DNA of 27,220 bases from an archaeon (GTDB lineage Archaea; Iainarchaeota; Iainarchaeia; Iainarchaeales; 1-14-0-10-31-34). The position numbers were made by a program, and so were the translations under genes. The notes under the pieces are model-generated. The model saw only the letters and a program-made list of their open reading frames with translations, was not told the DNA's origin and ran no database searches. Location: assembly GCA_043815885.1 (NCBI GenBank), contig JBDRIL010000039.1, forward strand, positions 1-27,220. Direction: 5' to 3'. Below, one piece after another: positions 9,217 through 18,237 of this stretch (positions within the stretch are counted from its first letter, which is position 1; each line of letters begins with the position of its first letter).

Positions 9217-10155
9217 TCATTCTAGTCTTGTACCAAAGTAGCTTATTGTCTGCTTTAATCCTTCTTCCAGTGAAACCACTGGCTTCCAATTCAATTCCTT
9301 TTCCGCTCTTGAGATGTCTGGTTTTCTTTGTTTTGGGTCATCAGAAGGAAGTTCCTCGAATACTATTTCTGAATTGCTTTTAGTTAATTGCTTTACTTTT
9401 TCAGCCAAATCAATCAGCTTCATTTCATTTGGATTGCCTAAATTAACTGGTTCAATGAAAGAAGAATTCATTAAATTGATTAATCCTTGCACCATGTCAG
9501 AGATAAAGCAGAAGCTTCTTGTCTGCTCTCCGTCTCCATAAACAGTTATTGGTTCTCCATTTAAAGCCTGAGTGATGAAGTTAGGGACAGCTCTGCCGTC
9601 TTCCTGCTGCATTCTCGGGCCATAGGTATTAAAGATTCTTGCAATTCTGGTGTCCAATTTATGTACTCTATTGTAAGTCATTACAAGTGATTCAGCAAAA
9701 CGCTTGGACTCATCATAGCAACTTCTGATTCCGATAGGATTAACATTCCCCCAGTAATCCTCTCTCTGGGGATGCTCCAATGGATCACCATATACCTCAG
9801 AAGTGGAAGTGTGAAGAAATCTGCTTTTGTTTTTTAAAGCCAAATCAAGGATTTGCTTTACTCCAACAGAACCAACCATTAAAGTCTCAATCGGTTTTTC
9901 TTGGTAGTCAAGAGGAGAGGCAATAGAGGCAAGGTTATAGATTTGGCTGAATGGCTTTTCCAAATCTGATTTATTGCAAATGTCTGCCTCAATTAATTCA
10001 AATAAATCGTTTTCCATTAATTCCTTAATGTTTTCTTTGGAGCCAGTAACGAAGTTATCAATACAGGTAACCTTATTTTCCTTTTTCACTAACCTTTCAC
10101 AGAGATGGCTTCCAATAAACCCTGCTCCGCCAGTAACAAGAATTCTTTTAGCCAA
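9217..10155 (-). CDS. uxs: UDP-glucuronate decarboxylase (UDP-xylose synthase)
   Basis: TGGAGFIGSHL, LASIASP, STSEVYGDP, EDYWGNVNPIGIRSCYDESKR, RIFNTYGPRM, DDPKQRKPDI. Confidence 0.92.
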   Translation of the reverse strand: MAKRILVTGGAGFIGSHLCERLVKKENKVTCIDNFVTGSKENIKELMENDLFELIEADICNKSDLEKPFSQIYNLASIASPLDYQEKPIETLMVGSVGVKQILDLALKNKSRFLHTSTSEVYGDPLEHPQREDYWGNVNPIGIRSCYDESKRFAESLVMTYNRVHKLDTRIARIFNTYGPRMQQEDGRAVPNFITQALNGEPITVYGDGEQTRSFCFISDMVQGLINLMNSSFIEPVNLGNPNEMKLIDLAEKVKQLTKSNSEIVFEELPSDDPKQRKPDISRAEKELNWKPVVSLEEGLKQTISYFGTRLE

Positions 10156-10170
10156 AAAAACCTTCTCCTT

Positions 10171-11043
10171 TCAAATAACTGACTTCAAGTAGGCTTTTAG
10201 TTCTTTACTTAAGTCCTTTCTATCCAAAGCGTATTCAATTACTGCCTTTAAGTAACTTAACCTGTCCCCAACAGTAAGCCATTTTCCATCAATCTCTTTT
10301 GCCATCATTTTCTCCATGTTATTGTAAATCCTTAAAGCATCAGTTAGCTGCAATTCATTTCCAATACCAAAAGGGGTTTCCTCCAGAATCTTAAAGATTC
10401 CGGGTTTTAAAATCAGTCTCCCTAAAACAGCAAGATTTGAAGGAGCTTCTTTCAGGGAAGGTTTTTCAATTAAGTCCTCAATCATTAAGTCATTATTGAC
10501 TTTCTTGTACTTAATTATTCCATACTTTGGAATGTCTTCGTCCGGAACAGCTGCCACGCCTATTACCCCAGAATTATGCCGTTCATATACTTCAATAAGC
10601 TGCTGTATTGCGGGTTTCTTGCTTAAAACCAAATCATCTCCATAAAACAATGCAAAAGGTTCGTTCCCGACATGCTTTTTGGCACAAAGGACAGCATGAC
10701 CTAACCCAAGAGGTTCTTTCTGCCTGATGTAATGAATGGAAGCCATATTCTCTATTTTCTCTAATTCACTCAATAAATCCATCTTGTTTCTTTCTCTCAG
10801 CATTGAATTCAATTCAACATTCTTATCAAAATGATCCTCAATCGCTCTCTTATCCCTTCCAGTGACAATCAATACATCATCAATTCCAGCTGAAACAGAT
10901 TCCTCAATCAAGTACTGCATTACAGGTTTATCCACTATCGGCAGCATTTCCTTTGGCTGGGCTTTTGTAGCTGGAAGGAACCTTGTCCCTAAACCAGCAG
11001 CAACAATAACTGTTTTCTTAATTGAAGATTCTTTTTTATCCAT
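10171..11043 (-). CDS. galU: UTP-glucose-1-phosphate uridylyltransferase
   Basis: AAGLGTRFLPATKAQPKEMLPIVDKP, IEDHFD, RQKEPLGLGHAV, EKP, ELQLTDA. Confidence 0.95.
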   Translation of the reverse strand: MDKKESSIKKTVIVAAGLGTRFLPATKAQPKEMLPIVDKPVMQYLIEESVSAGIDDVLIVTGRDKRAIEDHFDKNVELNSMLRERNKMDLLSELEKIENMASIHYIRQKEPLGLGHAVLCAKKHVGNEPFALFYGDDLVLSKKPAIQQLIEVYERHNSGVIGVAAVPDEDIPKYGIIKYKKVNNDLMIEDLIEKPSLKEAPSNLAVLGRLILKPGIFKILEETPFGIGNELQLTDALRIYNNMEKMMAKEIDGKWLTVGDRLSYLKAVIEYALDRKDLSKELKAYLKSVI

Positions 11044-11049
11044 AAAATA

Positions 11050-12321
11050 TCACCAACAAATTCCTTCATAATTTTTTGGGCTTGCTTTATTTTTAAAGAT
11101 ATTCCTTCCATCAAAAACCTTTTTATCCTTGAAATCCAATTTAGAGAAGTGCTCCCACTCAGTTAAAATAAAGATTATCTCGCTCTCATCAACAAGCTTT
11201 TGGGCTGAATCAAAGTAATTTACTTCAGAAAAAATCCTTTTCATGTTTTCCTCTGCTTTTGGATCGTGGGCAAGAACCTTTGCCTCCTCCTTCAATAATT
11301 CATTAATCACTGGAATGGCTCGGCTTTCGCGAACATCATCTGTTCCAGGTTTAAAAGCTAAACCCAGTATTCCAACCTTTTTGTTTTTCAATTCTGTTTT
11401 CTTTTTGGCTAATTCAATTAACTTTGAAGGCTGTCTCTCATTTACCTCTATAACTGAATCCAATAAAGGAGAGCCAACTCCAACCTCCCTTGCCTTTGAG
11501 GCAAGAGCCCTAACGTCTTTCGGGAAACAGCTTCCACCAAAACCAATCCCTGCATTAAGGAAGAAAGGAGAAATCCTTTTATCCATTCCAACCCCCTCAG
11601 CAACATTATAGGTATTAATGCCTAACTTCTTGCAGAGGTTCCCAATTTCATTAATAAAGGAAATTTTTGTTGAAAGAAAGGAATTGCTTGCATACTTAAT
11701 CATTTCAGCCTCAGAAAAAGAGGTAAAGAGAATCTTTGAATTAAAAGAAGAGTAAATTGAATTCATTATTTCCCTGGTTTTTTCATCGCTTGTTCCACAT
11801 ACAATCCTGTCAGGTTTCAAGAAATCCTCTAAAGCGAAACCCTCTCTCAAAAATTCAGGATTCATGCACAAACCAAAATCCTTTCCGCACTTTTTTCCAG
11901 AAGCTTCTTCCAGTAAAGGAAGAACGATTTTTTCAGTTGTAGTGGGAACAACAGTACTCTTCACTACAACTACGTGGAAGGAATTATTTTCCTTTAAAGC
12001 AGAACCAATCGATTTTACAACTGCTTCCACCGCATTCAGATTGCATTTTCCTTCTTCATCGCAAGGAGTTCCAACGCAAACAAAACTCGCATCAGAATTT
12101 AAGACAGCTTCTTTCAATCCAGTTGAAGCCCTCAGTTTTTCTGGAACGAGTTTCTTCAATGCCTCCTCCAAACCGAGTTCATAAATAGGGGGCTTTGCTG
12201 AATTAATTAATTCAACTTTCTTTGCGTCATTATCAATGCACTCAACTTCATGGCCGTTTAAGGCTAAGCCTACACCGCTTATTAAACCAACATAACCAGA
12301 ACCAATTACTGCCAGCTTCAT
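11050..12321 (-). CDS. ugd: UDP-glucose 6-dehydrogenase
   Basis: GSGYVG, CVGTP, KSTV, NPEFLREG, IKYASN, GFGGSCFPKD (catalytic Cys), AFKPGTDDVRES. Confidence 0.93.
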   Translation of the reverse strand: MKLAVIGSGYVGLISGVGLALNGHEVECIDNDAKKVELINSAKPPIYELGLEEALKKLVPEKLRASTGLKEAVLNSDASFVCVGTPCDEEGKCNLNAVEAVVKSIGSALKENNSFHVVVVKSTVVPTTTEKIVLPLLEEASGKKCGKDFGLCMNPEFLREGFALEDFLKPDRIVCGTSDEKTREIMNSIYSSFNSKILFTSFSEAEMIKYASNSFLSTKISFINEIGNLCKKLGINTYNVAEGVGMDKRISPFFLNAGIGFGGSCFPKDVRALASKAREVGVGSPLLDSVIEVNERQPSKLIELAKKKTELKNKKVGILGLAFKPGTDDVRESRAIPVINELLKEEAKVLAHDPKAEENMKRIFSEVNYFDSAQKLVDESEIIFILTEWEHFSKLDFKDKKVFDGRNIFKNKASPKNYEGICW

Positions 12322-12353: not shown

Positions 12354-12396
12354 TTTAAAAATAATAACAAGTAATACATAGTATGATAAAGTATGA
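12354..12396 (+). promoter_or_regulatory. TATA-like box plus 10-bp-phased AGTA(T/A)(G/T)A repeats upstream of RHH-NTase 1
   Basis: TTTAAAAA at 12354; AGTAATA 12370, AGTATGA 12380, AGTATGA 12390. No RBS, so the transcript may be leaderless. Confidence 0.45.
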
Positions 12397-13208
12397 GGAA
12401 CAGAGTTACCATTACAATTAAGGAGGATTTATTGGAGCAAGTGGACAGGCTTGTGGATGGGTTAACAATCAGAAGCAGGAGCCAGGCAATCGAGTATTTG
12501 CTGAGTAAATTCCTTTCCGATTTCAAGCTGAAGAACGCTTTAGTATTGGCCGGAGGAAAGGATTCACGGATGTTTCCTTTGACGAAAAACAAGCCTAAAT
12601 TCATTCTCAGGATAAAAGAAAAAACACTTCTTGAGCATGTAATGGATTATATTAATGGATTCAATGTAAGCAATTTCTTTGTGTATGTGGATTATTTTAA
12701 GGAAAAAATAAGGGAAGAATTGAATGGAATCAATGAGTATAATGTTAACTTCATTGAATCAGATAAATCAAAGGGAACAATTGAGCCATTGCTGAGGGCA
12801 AAGAGTTTCTTCAAGGACACTTTTTTGGTTGTGAATGGAGACACAATCAGTTCAGTTAACCTGAATGAAATGCTCTTGTTTCACAAAAAGAATAAATCCA
12901 TTGCAACCATTGCACTCACCACTGTAAGCAATCCAAAGGATTATGGTGTTGCAATGCTTCAGGGAGACAAGGTAAATGAATTCAAGGAAAAACCCAAAAA
13001 AGAGGCAGGAAGTTATTTGGTCAGCGCGGGATACTATATCTTTGAACCAGAAATCTTCAAGTATATCTCAAGGGAAATGAAGAGCATGGAAAAGGAATTA
13101 TTTCCGAAACTGGCGGAAAAGGGGCTGCTTTATGGTTATCCATTCCAGGGAATATACATTAATGTGAATACAGTTGAAGACTTTGAAAAAGCGAAAAGAA
13201 TTCTATAA
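12393..13208 (+). CDS. Ribbon-helix-helix domain fused to a sugar-phosphate nucleotidyltransferase-like domain (copy 1, degenerate motifs)
   Basis: N-terminal RVTITIKEDLLEQVDRLV...RSRSQAIEYLL (RHH pattern), then LAGGKDSRMFPLT..KPK, VVNGD, FKEKP, SAGYYIF. Confidence 0.85.
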   Translation: MRNRVTITIKEDLLEQVDRLVDGLTIRSRSQAIEYLLSKFLSDFKLKNALVLAGGKDSRMFPLTKNKPKFILRIKEKTLLEHVMDYINGFNVSNFFVYVDYFKEKIREELNGINEYNVNFIESDKSKGTIEPLLRAKSFFKDTFLVVNGDTISSVNLNEMLLFHKKNKSIATIALTTVSNPKDYGVAMLQGDKVNEFKEKPKKEAGSYLVSAGYYIFEPEIFKYISREMKSMEKELFPKLAEKGLLYGYPFQGIYINVNTVEDFEKAKRIL

Positions 13209-13213
13209 AAAAA

Positions 13214-13804
13214 TTATCTCATTTTTTTTCTTATAATTCTATTAACTAATTTTATCACAATTGGGGGTTTTCTCTTAAATAATTTTATCAGAGTTCTTGG
13301 GATTTCTGTTTTTTTAATATCATTCCAGAATATTTTTATCTCGAGTTTCCGCACTGCCTCTCTATAAGAACATGGTTTTGTTTTACTAATTCCTGCTTTT
13401 CCCAGGTGTTTCACTGCTTTGCTAGAGCCAAGATTAACAAATTCTAATTGAGGATGTCTTTTTTTCATTTCTCTTATTACAATTAAATCAAGTTTACTAG
13501 CAATACCCTTATGATTAAAAATCCCGTTAGGAGCATTAGAAAAATGGTGACTGTATACCCATTCCACGGTTTTTTCCCCCTCGGAAAACTTAAGCGTGAC
13601 AAACCCAATATATCTTTTAAAACTTTGTGGGTTTTTTAAACGCTTGGCGTATTCACTTATTGCTTGTCTTATTTGAGGCGTGGAAATAAAATCTTCAGAA
13701 GGGATTCCTTTCCCAACAGTAAAAGAAACATTTAACATATCATAAATACAATGATTCGGTTTGCGATACTCAATTCTTATGCCAGGCACTTCTTTTTTTC
13801 CCAC
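13214..13804 (-). CDS. Hypothetical basic protein (orphan)
   Basis: 196-aa ORF (GTG start) that exactly fills the gap. No family recognised. Confidence 0.55.
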   Translation of the reverse strand: MGKKEVPGIRIEYRKPNHCIYDMLNVSFTVGKGIPSEDFISTPQIRQAISEYAKRLKNPQSFKRYIGFVTLKFSEGEKTVEWVYSHHFSNAPNGIFNHKGIASKLDLIVIREMKKRHPQLEFVNLGSSKAVKHLGKAGISKTKPCSYREAVRKLEIKIFWNDIKKTEIPRTLIKLFKRKPPIVIKLVNRIIRKKMR

Positions 13805-13822
13805 AATAAAAGAAAGTCTTTT

Positions 13823-14645
13823 CTAGTATAAAACCCTTTGCACTAATTTTTTTTCTTCAAGGATTTCTTCTACTGTAATATTCTTGAAGTGTTCAAGGAT
13901 AATTGGAAGCTGTTTTAGGTTTGGAATGTCTTGAATGAGTTTTAAATCTTCTTTTTTTGCCGGGAGATGGATATTGGAATCGGCTGGAACGTGCAAGTGG
14001 ATTTGGGTTATTTTTTCCTTTAATTCAAGGAGAGAATTAATTGTATTGTCGGCAATTGCGTGGCCTAAATCGAAAAGTAAGCTGAGAGAAGGGAATTGAT
14101 TGAAGATTTTCTGGAAGTCGTTTCCCGTGACTAAGGCGTTGTCTTCATTGGAGTCAATGTTTTCAATTGCAATCTTTATTCCAATGGAATTATTTTTTTT
14201 TTACAACGTAATCAAGGACTTCCAGCAATTTTTTTGTGGCTTTTTCTTTGTTGAGTTTTTTGGCCAAGACAGCTTCAGCATAGCCTTTTGGATTTTTCCT
14301 GTATTCCACGACTCCTAAAAAACCTGGATGGAAGCTGATTATTTCTGCTTCAAGTATTTCTGCTGCCCTGAATAAATTATCAATTACTTTTTTGTTCCGA
14401 GGGGTTAAGCCGAGAGCGGGATTGAACCAGAAGTTTTCTTTCCATGGAGGAAACAATCCATGGATAGTGAATTGCAGTTCAGGAAAATCTTTTTTGATTT
14501 TTTTTGTGGTTTCAAAAAGGTTTTCCTCGAATTTGTGGGCTGCGCCTATTTCAGCTAAATTAAAGCCTAGTTCACTGATGTTTTTGACTGAATCATAGAT
14601 GGAAAAGTTTTTTGAAGCAAAATAGCTTGAGCTTAAGCCAATCAA
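13823..14645 (-). pseudogene. Sugar phosphate isomerase/epimerase (xylose-isomerase-like/AP endonuclease 2 TIM barrel), frameshifted at an A10 tract
   Basis: The 5' part has AEIG, TIHG and SFHPG. After the A10 run (14193-14202) a second frame gives KIAIEN, LLFDLGH, IHLH, HLP, IILEH and ends at TAG 13823. An A9 tract would restore a 273-aa ORF. Confidence 0.85.
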
Positions 14646-14680
14646 TTTGTTTCACCTTCAAAAGAAAGAAATACGGAGTA

Positions 14681-14714
14681 TTTAAAAAATTATATATTTC
14701 ATAATACTTATGAA
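14681..14714 (+). promoter_or_regulatory. TATA-like box and 7-bp inverted repeat upstream of RHH-NTase 2
   Basis: TTTAAAAA at 14681; TTCATAA-tac-TTATGAA at 14698-14714, 5 nt before the ATG. Confidence 0.5.
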
Positions 14715-14719
14715 TTTTT

Positions 14720-15565
14720 ATGAAGGAAAAAGGGAGAAAAGAGCGAGCCACAATTAACATTGATTCTTCTTTGCTTTCAAGGGTGGATTTGCTTGTTGAT
14801 GGGCAAAAGATAAGAAACAGGAGCCATGCAGTTGAATCACTTATCACTAAAGCTTTGAGCAAACAGGGAATTACTACTGCTTTTGTATTGGTTGGAGGAA
14901 AGGGAACAAGGTTAAGGCCTTTAACGAATAAAGTGCCTAAACCAATGATTCCAGTGAAAGGCAAACCAATACTCCAATACGTAATAGAGTTACTTAAAAA
15001 ACACGAGGTAAACAATATTGTTCTGGCTGTAGGCCATATGAATGAAAAGATTCAGGAATACTTTGGGGATGGGAGAAGGTTTGGAGTGAATATTGAATAT
15101 GTTCTGGAAGAAAAGCCTTTAGGGACAGGCGGGCCGTTAAGGCTGGCAAAAGATTTCCTGAAAAAAGAATTCTTTATGTTCAATGGAGACAATCTGACTA
15201 ATATTGATTTGCTTGATATGTATTCATTCCATAAAAAGAATAATGCGTTTTGCACGATTGCTTTAAAGGCAGTGGAAGACGCCTCGCATTTTGGGGTAGT
15301 GGAAGTGCAGGGAAATAAAGTAGTGAAGTTTATTGAGAAACCAAAGAAGCCAAAATCCAATTTAATTAATCCTGGAACATATATACTGAATCCAGAGATA
15401 ATAGAAATGATTCCGAAAGGATTTTCATTGATAGAGGAAGCAGTGTTTCCTAAACTGGCAAAGGAAGGAAAACTGTACGGATATATTTACAATGGCCAGT
15501 GGTTTCCGACTGACACAATGGAGAGATATGAAAAAGCAAAAAGAGAATGGAATGGAATAAATTAA
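14720..15565 (+). CDS. Ribbon-helix-helix domain fused to a sugar-phosphate nucleotidyltransferase (copy 2; mannose-1-P/heptose-1-P guanylyltransferase-like)
   Basis: RATINIDSSLLSRVDLLVDGQKIRNRSHAVESLI, then LVGGKGTRLRPLT..PKPM, EEKPLGTGG, NGD, FIEKP, INPGTYIL. Confidence 0.87.
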   Translation: MKEKGRKERATINIDSSLLSRVDLLVDGQKIRNRSHAVESLITKALSKQGITTAFVLVGGKGTRLRPLTNKVPKPMIPVKGKPILQYVIELLKKHEVNNIVLAVGHMNEKIQEYFGDGRRFGVNIEYVLEEKPLGTGGPLRLAKDFLKKEFFMFNGDNLTNIDLLDMYSFHKKNNAFCTIALKAVEDASHFGVVEVQGNKVVKFIEKPKKPKSNLINPGTYILNPEIIEMIPKGFSLIEEAVFPKLAKEGKLYGYIYNGQWFPTDTMERYEKAKREWNGIN

Positions 15566-15577
15566 GGAGGGGAAAAA

Positions 15578-16567
15578 ATGAAAAGAGTGTTGATAACAGG
15601 AATAAATGGTTTTGTTGGAAGCCATTTAAGTGAATTCATTCTGGACAATGACTTAGGAGAGGTTTACGGAACAGTAAGAACCACAAATGAAAGCATGAGA
15701 AACATTCACCAGATAATGAACAAAATAAACCTGATTAACTGTGATATAACTGATTTTCATTCAATTGACAGAGTGATAGAGGATGTCTGTCCTGACTATA
15801 TTTTTCATTTGGCTGCACAGGCATTTGTTCCAAGCAGCTGGAAGGCGCCGGTAGAAACAATTAACACTAACGTGATTGGTTCACTGAATTTATTTGAGGC
15901 AGTGAGAAAGAATGAATGCAATCCAACAGTACAGATTGCAGGAAGCAGTGAAGAGTATGGAATGGTTTACGAGAACGAAGTTCCAATAAAGGAAGACAAT
16001 CCTTTAAGGCCTTTAAGCCCTTATGGGGTTAGCAAGGTAGCAATGGATTTACTGGGGTACCAGTACAATAAAAGCTATGGATTGAAAATTATCAGGACAA
16101 GAGGATTCAATCATACCGGACCAAGAAGAGGAGAAGCTTATGTCTGCAGTAACTGGAGCCAACAGATTGCAGAAATAGAGGTGAAGGGAAAGGAACCATC
16201 AATTTATGTAGGCAATCTTGAATCAAAGAGAGACTTTACCGATGTAAGGGACATGGTGAAAGGATACTGGACTGCAGTAGAGAAATGCACTCCAGGGGAA
16301 GCATACAATCTCTCTTCCCAAAAGACATGGAAAATGAAGGAAGTACTGGATTTATTGCTGGGAATGAGCAAGAAGAAAATAGCAGTAAAGCAGGATCCGG
16401 CAAGAATGCGTCCAAGCGATGTCCCAATTCTATTGGGGGACAGCACTAAATTCAGGGAAAAAACCGGGTGGAAAAATGAAATTCCGTTTGAAAAAACATT
16501 AAAGGATACATTGGATTACTGGAGAGATAAGGTAAAGAAAAGGGTGAGGAATGAAAAGGATGAATGA
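15578..16567 (+). CDS. gmd: GDP-mannose 4,6-dehydratase family extended SDR
   Basis: LITGINGFVG, FHLAAQAFVPSSW, GSSEEYG, PLSPYGVSK, FNHTGPRRG, GNLESKRDF, RMRPSDV. A reductase (Rmd-type) function is not excluded. Confidence 0.75.
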   Translation: MKRVLITGINGFVGSHLSEFILDNDLGEVYGTVRTTNESMRNIHQIMNKINLINCDITDFHSIDRVIEDVCPDYIFHLAAQAFVPSSWKAPVETINTNVIGSLNLFEAVRKNECNPTVQIAGSSEEYGMVYENEVPIKEDNPLRPLSPYGVSKVAMDLLGYQYNKSYGLKIIRTRGFNHTGPRRGEAYVCSNWSQQIAEIEVKGKEPSIYVGNLESKRDFTDVRDMVKGYWTAVEKCTPGEAYNLSSQKTWKMKEVLDLLLGMSKKKIAVKQDPARMRPSDVPILLGDSTKFREKTGWKNEIPFEKTLKDTLDYWRDKVKKRVRNEKDE

Positions 16568-17090
16568 AGAAGAATTAAAGGAAAAAATAAGGAATGTTCC
16601 TGATTTCCCAAAAAAAGGAATTGTTTTCAGGGACATTACTACATTGCTTCAGGATCCAAAGGCATTAAAGCTATCAATAAGGGAAATGCTTAAGAGAGTG
16701 GAAGGAAAAAAAATTGATGTAGTTATTGGAGCGGAATCAAGGGGATTCATTTTTGGTTCTCTTATAGCCTATGAATTAGGGGTTCCGTTTGTTCCTGTAA
16801 GGAAGCCAGGCAAACTTCCATTCAAAAAAATAAAAAAGGAATTCCAGACAGAGTATTCAACTGATTCACTTGAAATCCATGTGGATGCAATCAAGAAAGG
16901 AGATAATGTATTAATTGCAGACGACCTGCTTGCAACAGGAGGCACATCCAAAGCAATCTGTGAATTAGTTGAAGAGTTAGAAGGAAATGTTGTGGCATTA
17001 ATTTTTTTAATTGAATTGAGTTTCCTGAAAGGAAGAGAGAAAATAAAGGATTATGAAGTTTTTTCCCTGGTTGATTACGAGAGTGAATGA
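16551..17090 (+). CDS. apt: Adenine phosphoribosyltransferase
   Basis: PDFPKKGIVFRDIT, ESRGFIFG, RKPGKLP, ADDLLATGGT. The start may be ATG 16560. Confidence 0.95.
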   Translation: MKRMNEEELKEKIRNVPDFPKKGIVFRDITTLLQDPKALKLSIREMLKRVEGKKIDVVIGAESRGFIFGSLIAYELGVPFVPVRKPGKLPFKKIKKEFQTEYSTDSLEIHVDAIKKGDNVLIADDLLATGGTSKAICELVEELEGNVVALIFLIELSFLKGREKIKDYEVFSLVDYESE

Positions 17091-17093
17091 AAA

Positions 17094-17864
17094 ATGATTG
17101 GATTGATTGGAGGAACTGGAGTATATGATCCAAAAATGCTGAAGAATGCTGAGGAAAAGGAAATAGAGACTCCTTTCGGAAAGCCGTCAGATTCAATTAC
17201 AGTTGGAGAGCTGAATGGAAGAAAGATTGCTTTTCTGCCAAGGCATGGAAGCAAGCATTCGATTCCCCCCCATAAGATAAATTTCAGGGCAAATATCTGG
17301 GCATTAAAGGAATTGGGTTGTGAGAGGGTTCTTGCAACATGCGCGTGTGGTTCACTGAAAAAGGAATTAAAGCCAGGAACAATTGTTTTTCCAGACCAAT
17401 TCATTGATTGGGGAAAAGAAGTAACTACTTTCTACGATGAAGGAAAAGTCTATCATGTATGGATGGCTGACCCATTCTGCAAGGAAATGGGAAAGGAATT
17501 GATTGAAACAGCAAAAAAATTGAAGCTGGACTTTCATGAAAAAGGCACTTATCTAAGGATTTCCGGACCGCAATTTTCCACTAGAGCTGCCTCAAAGATG
17601 TATTCACAATCTGCTGATTTAATTGGAATGACTGGCGTGCCTGAAGCAATTCTCTGCAGGGAAAAAGAAATGTGTTTCTCAATAATTGCAACCATTACAG
17701 ATTATGATGTATGTTTAGGAAGCTTTACTCAATTCAAGGACATAAAGAAAACAATGAAACAGAATCTGGATAACACAAAGAAACTGATTGAAGAAGTGGT
17801 TCCACTGATTCCGGAAAAAAGAGAATGCGAATGCAGTAATTCATTAGAAGGAGCAGAAGCTTAA
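17094..17864 (+). CDS. mtnP: S-methyl-5'-thioadenosine phosphorylase
   Basis: IGGTG, TPFGKPS, RHG..H..PPH, RANIWAL, DQFID, GPQFSTRA, IGMT, TDYD, C-terminal CEC. Confidence 0.9.
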   Translation: MIGLIGGTGVYDPKMLKNAEEKEIETPFGKPSDSITVGELNGRKIAFLPRHGSKHSIPPHKINFRANIWALKELGCERVLATCACGSLKKELKPGTIVFPDQFIDWGKEVTTFYDEGKVYHVWMADPFCKEMGKELIETAKKLKLDFHEKGTYLRISGPQFSTRAASKMYSQSADLIGMTGVPEAILCREKEMCFSIIATITDYDVCLGSFTQFKDIKKTMKQNLDNTKKLIEEVVPLIPEKRECECSNSLEGAEA

Positions 17865-17898: not shown

Positions 17899-18237
17899 AT
17901 GGAAAAATACGAATCTAATCTCATATTCTTTGGATACAATCCATTCATCAGGATGCTTGATGCATTCATTGATAATACTGGAAGCGATTACCCAAAGAAA
18001 GAAATCCAGGAATTGGCTGGAATAAGCAAAGGCGCCTTGTTCAAGCACTGGAATAAATTAGAGAAAATGAATCTGGTTAAAAAAACAAGAAGTTTTGGAA
18101 ATACCACTCTTTACACTTTAAATACTGGCAATGACACAGTAAAGATTTTATTGAAACTGGAAATGCATTTAATTGAGGAAACTGCCCCAAAAGAAAAGGA
18201 GAAAATAAAGGCAGTCGTGCGAGGAAAAACAAAATAA
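17899..18237 (+). CDS. Winged helix-turn-helix protein
   Basis: KEIQELAGISKGALFKHWNKL HTH and TRSFGNTTLYTLN wing. Paralog of 25399..25746. Confidence 0.75.
   Translation: MEKYESNLIFFGYNPFIRMLDAFIDNTGSDYPKKEIQELAGISKGALFKHWNKLEKMNLVKKTRSFGNTTLYTLNTGNDTVKILLKLEMHLIEETAPKEKEKIKAVVRGKTK

Follow-up and report, generated by a model that had tools for sequence, protein, structure and literature searches.

The locus and its two paralogs

The subject of this analysis is a pair of paralogous genes in a 27,220-nucleotide stretch of archaeal DNA (Iainarchaeota; assembly GCA_043815885.1, contig JBDRIL010000039.1), referred to below as the window, which is contig 39 of a 1.16-Mb genome in 62 contigs that is ~92% complete and holds five NTP_transferase genes. 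Each of the two genes, called copy 1 and copy 2, encodes a ribbon-helix-helix (RHH) head followed by a sugar nucleotidyltransferase (NTase) fold. As the initial annotation had stated, genes resembling ugd, galU and uxs diverge from copy 1, and a gmd-like gene follows copy 2. Operator-like repeats in the genes' own promoters suggest that the pair may serve as switches for cell-surface sugar genes.

Domain architecture

The fusion of the two domains, first put forward from the letters and open reading frames (ORFs), is confirmed in both genes. The products are identical at 112 of 270 positions (41%; BLASTP E 1e-68), the N-terminal 45 residues included, and Pfam assigns NTP_transferase (PF00483) to both, with E-values of 5e-35 for copy 1 and 3e-47 for copy 2. 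RHH_1 (PF01402) is recognised in copy 1, at 25.2 bits against a cut-off of 20.5; copy 2 gives no RHH_1 match at E<=0.01 in Pfam. Among close homologs, the family is matched by 35 of 65 for copy 1 and by 25 of 61 for copy 2.

The AlphaFold2 model of copy 1 (pLDDT, the predicted local distance difference test, 91.7) leaves the first ten residues unstructured ahead of the two helices, and this predicted N-terminus matches the appearance expected of a monomeric RHH. The residues of the reading strand and of the N-terminus of helix 2 (R, T, T and RSRS/RNRS) are near-invariant in both clades, and the reading strand of copy 2 has Asn where that of copy 1 has Thr.

Both proteins end with the NTase domain, whose nearest solved structures are those of GDP-mannose pyrophosphorylases (the top Foldseek matches of copy 1, aligned across about 230 columns); the C-terminal left-handed beta-helix is absent, and matches in the PDB cover the NTase domain only. 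A Foldseek search of the copy 1 model returned no solved structure spanning both domains. The missing hexapeptide tail to which the initial annotation drew attention is thus real, but such an absence is normal for many short NTases.

Catalytic motifs in the two clades

The 120 best matches of each paralog were compared column by column, and decay on the copy 1 side was counted in 113 clusters of the NxN type, a subset in which the two Asn are invariant by definition. In the copy 2-like clade, G62, R64, P67, T69, K74, E130, G138, D157 and E206-K207-P208 are each present in 120/120, as is the intact GGxGTRLxPLT loop, which reads GGKGTRLRPLT in copy 2. Two forms occur at the second metal position of this clade: WxDxG, with D in 81, and WxPxD, with P in 30 and D two residues further along in 32. 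The second form is probably active, as in CDP-glucose pyrophosphorylase. As metal ligands copy 2 offers D157 and WFPTD; copy 1 has D150 but NVN. All the motifs quoted in the initial annotation are present, GGKDSR (residues 54-59) and YINVNT (255-260) in copy 1 and GGKGTR (59-64) and WFPTDT (261-266) in copy 2, but the reading of WFPTDT as an oddity of copy 2 does not hold, WxPxD being common in the active clade at the frequencies just given (30/120 and 32/120).

In the copy 1-like NxN clusters, by comparison, Gly is missing from the six commonest residues at the G62 (GxG) column, the loop Arg is found in at most 9/113, the Pro column is gapped in 96/113, and E130 and G138 are replaced. Residues of the pocket are kept: D157 in 112/113, K207 in 113/113 and K/R74 in 111/113. 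This pattern fits a loss of catalysis with part of the pocket apparently still under selection. The copy 1-like proteins form one clade in a quick tree (SH-aLRT, an approximate likelihood ratio test, 99; 34 rows from Iainarchaeota and Aenigmatarchaeota).

Copy 1 of the window is the least decayed member of this clade. It keeps GGKDSRMFPLT with Arg59 and PLT, together with Lys69, Asp150 and Glu199-Lys200-Pro201, and carries Asp, Ser and Glu at the Gly62, Glu130 and Gly138 columns, which are invariant (120/120) in the active clade. Its nearest relatives vary in the same loop (GGKDSGM, GGKDARM, GGKDLIK and others). The loop is decayed across the clade; the window protein, which retains the Arg, is less clearly dead than most. 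Further RHH-NTases, at loci L054-L059 and L066, combine decayed NTP (nucleoside triphosphate) loops with WFD-type motifs and are placed, on weak support, apart from the main copy 1 clade, and loop decay may have arisen more than once.

Candidate operators and their conservation

Each of the two promoters in the window has half-sites in the interval from a TATA-like box to the start codon (Table 1). The pattern TCATAM-N3-KTATGA finds candidate operator 2 as its sole match in the 1.16-Mb genome, and the layout of this operator is identical in four orthologous loci. A composite motif has three matches in the same 1.16 Mb, the two promoters and one dissimilar, weak site on C60. The short palindrome at 14671-14681 was dropped as an operator because it is not conserved in orthologous copy 2 promoters.

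An early statistic, by which the window contains two copies of ATAC-N3-GTAT, one ahead of each gene, where 0.10 would be expected, is biased, the pattern having been picked after both promoters had been viewed; it is superseded by an unbiased test of 6-mers in the 110 nt upstream of 60 RHH-bearing homologs from other species, with the window excluded and 600 control ORFs for comparison. The top enriched word was GTATGA/TCATAC, present in 43/60 upstream regions and in 43/600 controls (p 1e-29). With start codons excluded, GTATGA is found in 26/30 copy 1-like upstream regions (24/601 controls), the palindrome CATAH-N3-DTATG in 22/30 of these (22/601 controls), and TCATAC in 14/30 upstream regions of RHH-bearing copy 2-like genes (24/601 controls).

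The arrangement is conserved along with the word. Copy 1-like genes share a layout of TATA-like box, 10-12 nt, TCATAY-ATA-GTATGA, 3-4 nt and GTATG with the start codon, and in most orthologous spacers some 10-12 nt separate the TATA-like word from the palindrome downstream of it. In Woesearchaeota genes, the TATA-like box is preceded by TCATAC words that recur in the same orientation every 10 nt. The palindrome is absent upstream of 14 RHH-less enzyme paralogs, 9 of them separately placed and 5 directly after a copy 1-like gene. Additionally, the half-site appears to follow the reading strand: genes with strand R-T-N (n=5, copy 2 included) show TCATAA/TTATGA 11 times and TCATAC/GTATGA 2 times, and those with strand R-T-T (n=52) show the same words 11 and 59 times, respectively. 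The RHH-less paralogs and this pairing of strand with half-site would tie the sites to the RHH proteins.

A regulon search of the genome itself returned only the two promoters, the weak match on C60 and an identity of 17 nt on C61. The latter (C61:14058-14074, TTATGAATTTTTATGAA) is identical to the 3' part of candidate operator 2 and carries two TTATGA-type half-sites 11 nt apart centre to centre; it is intergenic, about 120 nt upstream of a gene resembling phosphoenolpyruvate (PEP) synthase (- strand) and beside a TATA-like word, and may be a third target site. In the 71-nt spacer between ugd and copy 1, no clear TATA-like word is present other than the box at 12354-12364, which is about 36 nt away from either start codon; it might serve both directions, or a second box might be weak.

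Conserved gene context

The neighbourhood of copy 1 recurs in other genomes. Among 34 copy 1-like loci, 25 have a divergent ugd within 400 nt, and 5 of the 9 that do not have <700 nt of upstream sequence; most of the ugd/copy 1-like spacers measure only 62-141 nt. Downstream of copy 1-like genes, the partner is an active-type paralog, which bears an RHH in the lineage of the window (5 rows) and lacks it in 14 other Iainarchaeota loci. In five of these 14 loci (L016, L025, L031, L035 and L036), the RHH-less active paralog starts 13-37 nt after the copy 1-like gene. Behind copy 2-like genes, the order gmd-apt-mtap recurs in the related loci L001-L003, L006 and L016. The gmd-like gene scores 179.6 bits, below its NCBIfam equivalog cut-off of 415, and the best NCBIfam match of copy 2, mannose-1-phosphate guanylyltransferase (NF052502), scores 195.7 bits, below a cut-off of 440.

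Table 1. Features of the two-paralog locus in window coordinates
Feature	Position	Strand	Remarks
uxs-like, galU and ugd block	9217-12321	-	divergent from copy 1
UXS-like short-chain dehydrogenase/reductase (SDR) gene	9217-10155	-	divergent from copy 1
galU	10171-11043	-	TIGR01099, 349 bits against a cut-off of 326.8; divergent from copy 1
ugd	11050-12321	-	divergent from copy 1
TATA-like box TTTAAAAATAA	12354-12364	.	midway between ugd and copy 1 start codons; putative promoter element
Candidate operator 1	12372-12396	.	TAATAC-ATA-GTATGA-TAAA-GTATGA; three half-sites 9-10 bp apart, the last containing the copy 1 start codon
Copy 1	12393-13208	+	ORF, 271 aa; RHH and degenerate NTP_transferase; candidate sensor-regulator
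Copy 1 RHH domain	12393-12527	+	residues 1-45; strand RNRVTITI, helices 11-20 and 29-40 (AlphaFold2)
Copy 1 NTase-like domain	12534-13205	+	residues 48-271; GGKDSRMFPLT loop, NVN replacing DxG
Short palindrome ATACGGAGTAT	14671-14681	.	abuts the copy 2 TATA-like box; significance uncertain
TATA-like box of copy 2	14682-14689	.	upstream of copy 2; putative function
Candidate operator 2	14699-14724	.	TCATAA-TAC-TTATGA-ATTTT-TATGAA; start codon within the last half-site
Copy 2	14720-15565	+	ORF, 281 aa; RHH and NTP_transferase with all catalytic motifs; probable enzyme-regulator
Copy 2 RHH domain	14735-14869	+	about residues 6-50; strand KERATINI; aligned to copy 1 RHH
gmd-like, apt and mtap	15578-17864	+	downstream of copy 2; probable operon
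gmd-like gene	15578-16567	+	directly 3' of copy 2

Relation to NikR and other known systems

The best solved match to the RHH head is E. coli NikR (1q5v, E 0.027), whose strand RVTITL is nearly the RVTITI found here. The top word of the blind 6-mer test is also the published NikR half-site, the E. coli operator being given as GTATGA-N16-TCATAC in section 2.1 of PMC7055735 and in PMC545781. The enriched hexamer is thus the one expected for the reading strand. The likeness to NikR (E. coli 1q5v, P. horikoshii 2bj1) therefore comprises the best-matching RHH head with its near-identical RVTIT strand, the same half-site word (here predicted in silico), and an overall logic in which an N-terminal RHH is joined to a C-terminal ligand-binding, oligomerising body.

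The bodies themselves differ. NikR has NikR_C (PF08753), an ACT-like nickel domain, which is absent from both copies; Pfam finds NTP_transferase in its place. The half-sites here, an inverted pair with a further direct repeat, follow one another at 9-10 bp, whereas those of the published E. coli operator are separated by N16, and the ligand here is presumably a sugar nucleotide, in place of a metal. The genome also encodes a true NikR of its own (C60:1242-1649, +; 135 aa, RHH_1 and NikR_C), with the strand KRISVSV.

PutA, according to PMC5293562, joins an N-terminal RHH to an enzyme and is also an autogenous repressor, a combination that makes it a model for copy 2. Its enzyme domains are unrelated to the NTase fold. 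PutA switches by membrane association upon proline oxidation, and nothing hints at such switching for copies 1 and 2; we know of no dead paralog of PutA, unlike the copy 1/copy 2 pair.

The closest solved folds to both NTase domains come from pairs of a catalytic and a non-catalytic paralog, GMPPA/GMPPB and VTC1/KONJAC; GMPPA is described in PMC11228364 as a non-catalytic, product-binding partner of catalytic GMPPB. These pairs differ from the present one in having no DNA-binding domain, in possessing a C-terminal beta-helix and in being regulated allosterically and not by transcription. GalF, a regulatory paralog of the sugar nucleotidyltransferase GalU (NCBIfam TIGR01105, named 'GalU regulator GalF'), is a further likeness; this system is bacterial and lacks an RHH, and the galU of the window is a separate, ordinary gene.

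A proposed mechanism and its alternatives

We consider it moderately probable that the two proteins are NikR-like one-component regulators in which a sugar-1-phosphate nucleotidyltransferase fold serves as the ligand-binding body, and that both genes autoregulate. The domain architecture, the clade-wide loop decay, the conserved operator and the synteny are established in silico. On this proposal, dimers of the RHH heads would recognise GTATGA-type half-sites in the interval from TATA box to start codon at their own genes, and each protein would from there repress the promoter of the gene that encodes it. For copy 1 the likeliest role is that of an autorepressor with a decayed-enzyme sensor domain, placed at the ugd operon: with its NTP loop decayed and much of the sugar/nucleoside pocket kept, it could act as a dead-enzyme sensor at the compact promoter region shared with ugd-galU-uxs. 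Copy 2, whose chain combines an RHH with the complete set of catalytic motifs and whose promoter contains a candidate operator, all as judged in silico, is most likely an active NDP-hexose (nucleoside diphosphate hexose) pyrophosphorylase that also represses its own operon. It would be a trigger enzyme making an NDP-hexose, most likely GDP-mannose, for the gmd behind it, and would autoregulate the gmd operon through its own variant operator, TCATAA/TTATGA.

The regulator suggested in the initial annotation thus gains from the NikR-like RHH, from an operator that is conserved and not found at RHH-less paralogs, from the loop decay and from the ugd synteny; its nucleotide-sugar sensing we infer from the retained pocket residues and the gene context. 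DNA binding by copies 1 and 2, repression, catalysis and the identity of the ligand we likewise infer.

Several observations weigh against this reading. The NikR encoded on C60 could in principle bind similar sites. The word TTTAAA is also enriched in the 6-mer test (49/60 vs 155/600), and promoter-like words are inflated because the controls, taken from a crude ORF caller, include non-genes. The covariation of strand and half-site amounts to a single event, since the five R-T-N genes form one clade. Relative to the TATA-like box, operator 1 is on the side of copy 1 and not on that of ugd, which makes control of ugd a guess. The sugar assigned to copy 2 is tentative because neither copy 2 nor gmd reaches an NCBIfam equivalog cut-off. 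Four Woesearchaeota-type clusters pair an intact GGxGTRL loop with WxNxG, and GlmU uses Asn at the metal position; the exchange of Asp for Asn, found with intact loops in these clusters, was accordingly rejected as proof of a dead enzyme. With Arg59, PLT, Lys69, Asp150 and Lys200 retained in the window copy 1, some residual catalysis is possible.

These last points bear on a reading in which the window copy 1 has kept nucleotidyltransferase activity, with an unusual loop and another sugar or nucleotide specificity, making it a second trigger enzyme. The largely retained GGKDSRMFPLT loop, Lys69, Asp150 and the Glu-Lys-Pro triad speak for it, as does the co-occurrence of a metal-site Asn with intact loops elsewhere, but the nearest relatives vary freely in the loop, which is a pattern of relaxed constraint, and the three columns Gly62, Glu130 and Gly138 are occupied by other residues; we regard this reading as quite improbable. 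Still less probable, in our judgement, are two ordinary enzymes in which the RHH is a dimerisation tag replacing the beta-helix tail, with some other factor, for instance the NikR of this genome, binding the repeats, or with the repeats acting as promoter or initiator elements. Databases do name all homologs sugar-phosphate nucleotidyltransferases, a true NikR is encoded on C60, and the start codon lies inside the last half-site, so that conservation could partly reflect the context of translation or transcription start. However, the near-invariance of the DNA-reading strand and of the helix-2 N-terminus in both clades argues against a mere tag, the operator occurs with genes whose products bear an RHH, the palindromic half does not overlap the start codon and stays enriched when start codons are removed, and the strand of the genome's NikR (KRISVSV) is different.

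A regulatory contact between the two proteins was also considered, in which copy 1 would associate with copy 2 through the enzyme folds and adjust the activity of copy 2 allosterically, in the manner of GMPPA/GMPPB, replacing transcription control or acting alongside it. When the two NTase domains were modelled as a complex, the score was 0.75 (best control, 0.00), a mark reached by 116/157 solved complexes and 2/215 mismatched pairs, a calibration that is only approximate because own alignments were used; runs had >=93% of contacts in common, with partner pLDDT >=89. Partners of this kind and fold have been solved (GMPPA/GMPPB, 7d72; VTC1-KJC2, 8yre), and the five loci with an RHH-less active paralog closely following a copy 1-like gene are in keeping with a working pair. 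Yet the modelled interface is pseudo-symmetric, with equivalent residues on the copy 1 and copy 2 chains, so the same surface would serve homodimers equally; it is a dimer surface of the fold with no preference for the mixed pair, and close paralogs are known to pass this test. The heterodimer raised in the initial annotation is therefore modelled as a contact of the enzyme folds, by a method that cannot separate hetero- from homodimers. The beta-helix helps to hold the GMPPA/GMPPB complex together and is absent here, and an allosteric complex leaves the conserved operators unexplained. We think such a complex unlikely, if less so than the two readings above.

An extension of the regulator reading may be offered tentatively, and we hold it to be somewhat doubtful: a large family of NikR-derived regulators across DPANN archaea, with a live or dead NTase as sensor, in which the reading residue (Thr to Asn) and the operator (TCATAC to TCATAA) would have diverged to give insulated UDP- and GDP-sugar circuits, with cross-talk through mixed oligomers.

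Family range and significance

Full-length homologs of both paralogs, 265-285 aa long, are numerous in metagenomic archaea, among them Diapherotrites/Iainarchaeota, Micrarchaeota, Aenigmatarchaeota, Woesearchaeota/Nanoarchaeota, Altiarchaeota and one Asgard genome, and are named in databases solely as sugar-phosphate nucleotidyltransferases. When the 47-residue RHH head served as the sole query against 1.84 billion representatives, 113 sequences matched at E<=1e-3, of which the 77 with lengths of 100-700 aa were scanned for domains: 50 carry NTP_transferase and one HATPase_c, and the remainder have no family at E<=1e-4, RHH_1 only or, in one case, homing-endonuclease repeats, many of these being short and possibly fragments. 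In essence, then, this subtype of RHH goes together with this enzyme fold.

DPANN archaea have tiny genomes with few recognisable regulators, and need their cell surface for attachment to a host. If the regulator reading is true, a widespread family labelled in databases as plain enzymes would fill part of this regulator gap and add a new case of a pseudoenzyme turned into a sensor. The predicted operator, the target promoters and the candidate ligands are testable with recombinant protein, and culture of the organism is not needed. A full-text literature search, with subscription journals largely outside its coverage, returned no description of an RHH fused to a sugar nucleotidyltransferase, in agreement with the initial statement that no characterised example was known; in PMC6393860, the passages matching the search terms concern other proteins.

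Other genes of the window

After mtap lies an ORF of 112 aa (17899-18237, +) with weak MarR/SarA-like matches, under Pfam cut-offs. Divergent from copy 2 is a xylose-isomerase-like TIM-barrel gene (13829-14645, -) whose reading frame is broken near 14196-14200 by a frameshift: of the ortholog in L002, residues 1-148 match frame -3 and residues 146-269 match frame -1. Its orthologs are intact, at about 270-290 aa, and the frameshift may mark a genuine pseudogene or stem from faulty assembly. An ORF of 196 aa (13214-13804, -) located between the TIM-barrel gene and copy 1 has no Pfam or NCBIfam family and no homolog in 80 related loci; it is present in a single copy in the genome and looks like a lineage-specific insertion in an otherwise conserved locus.

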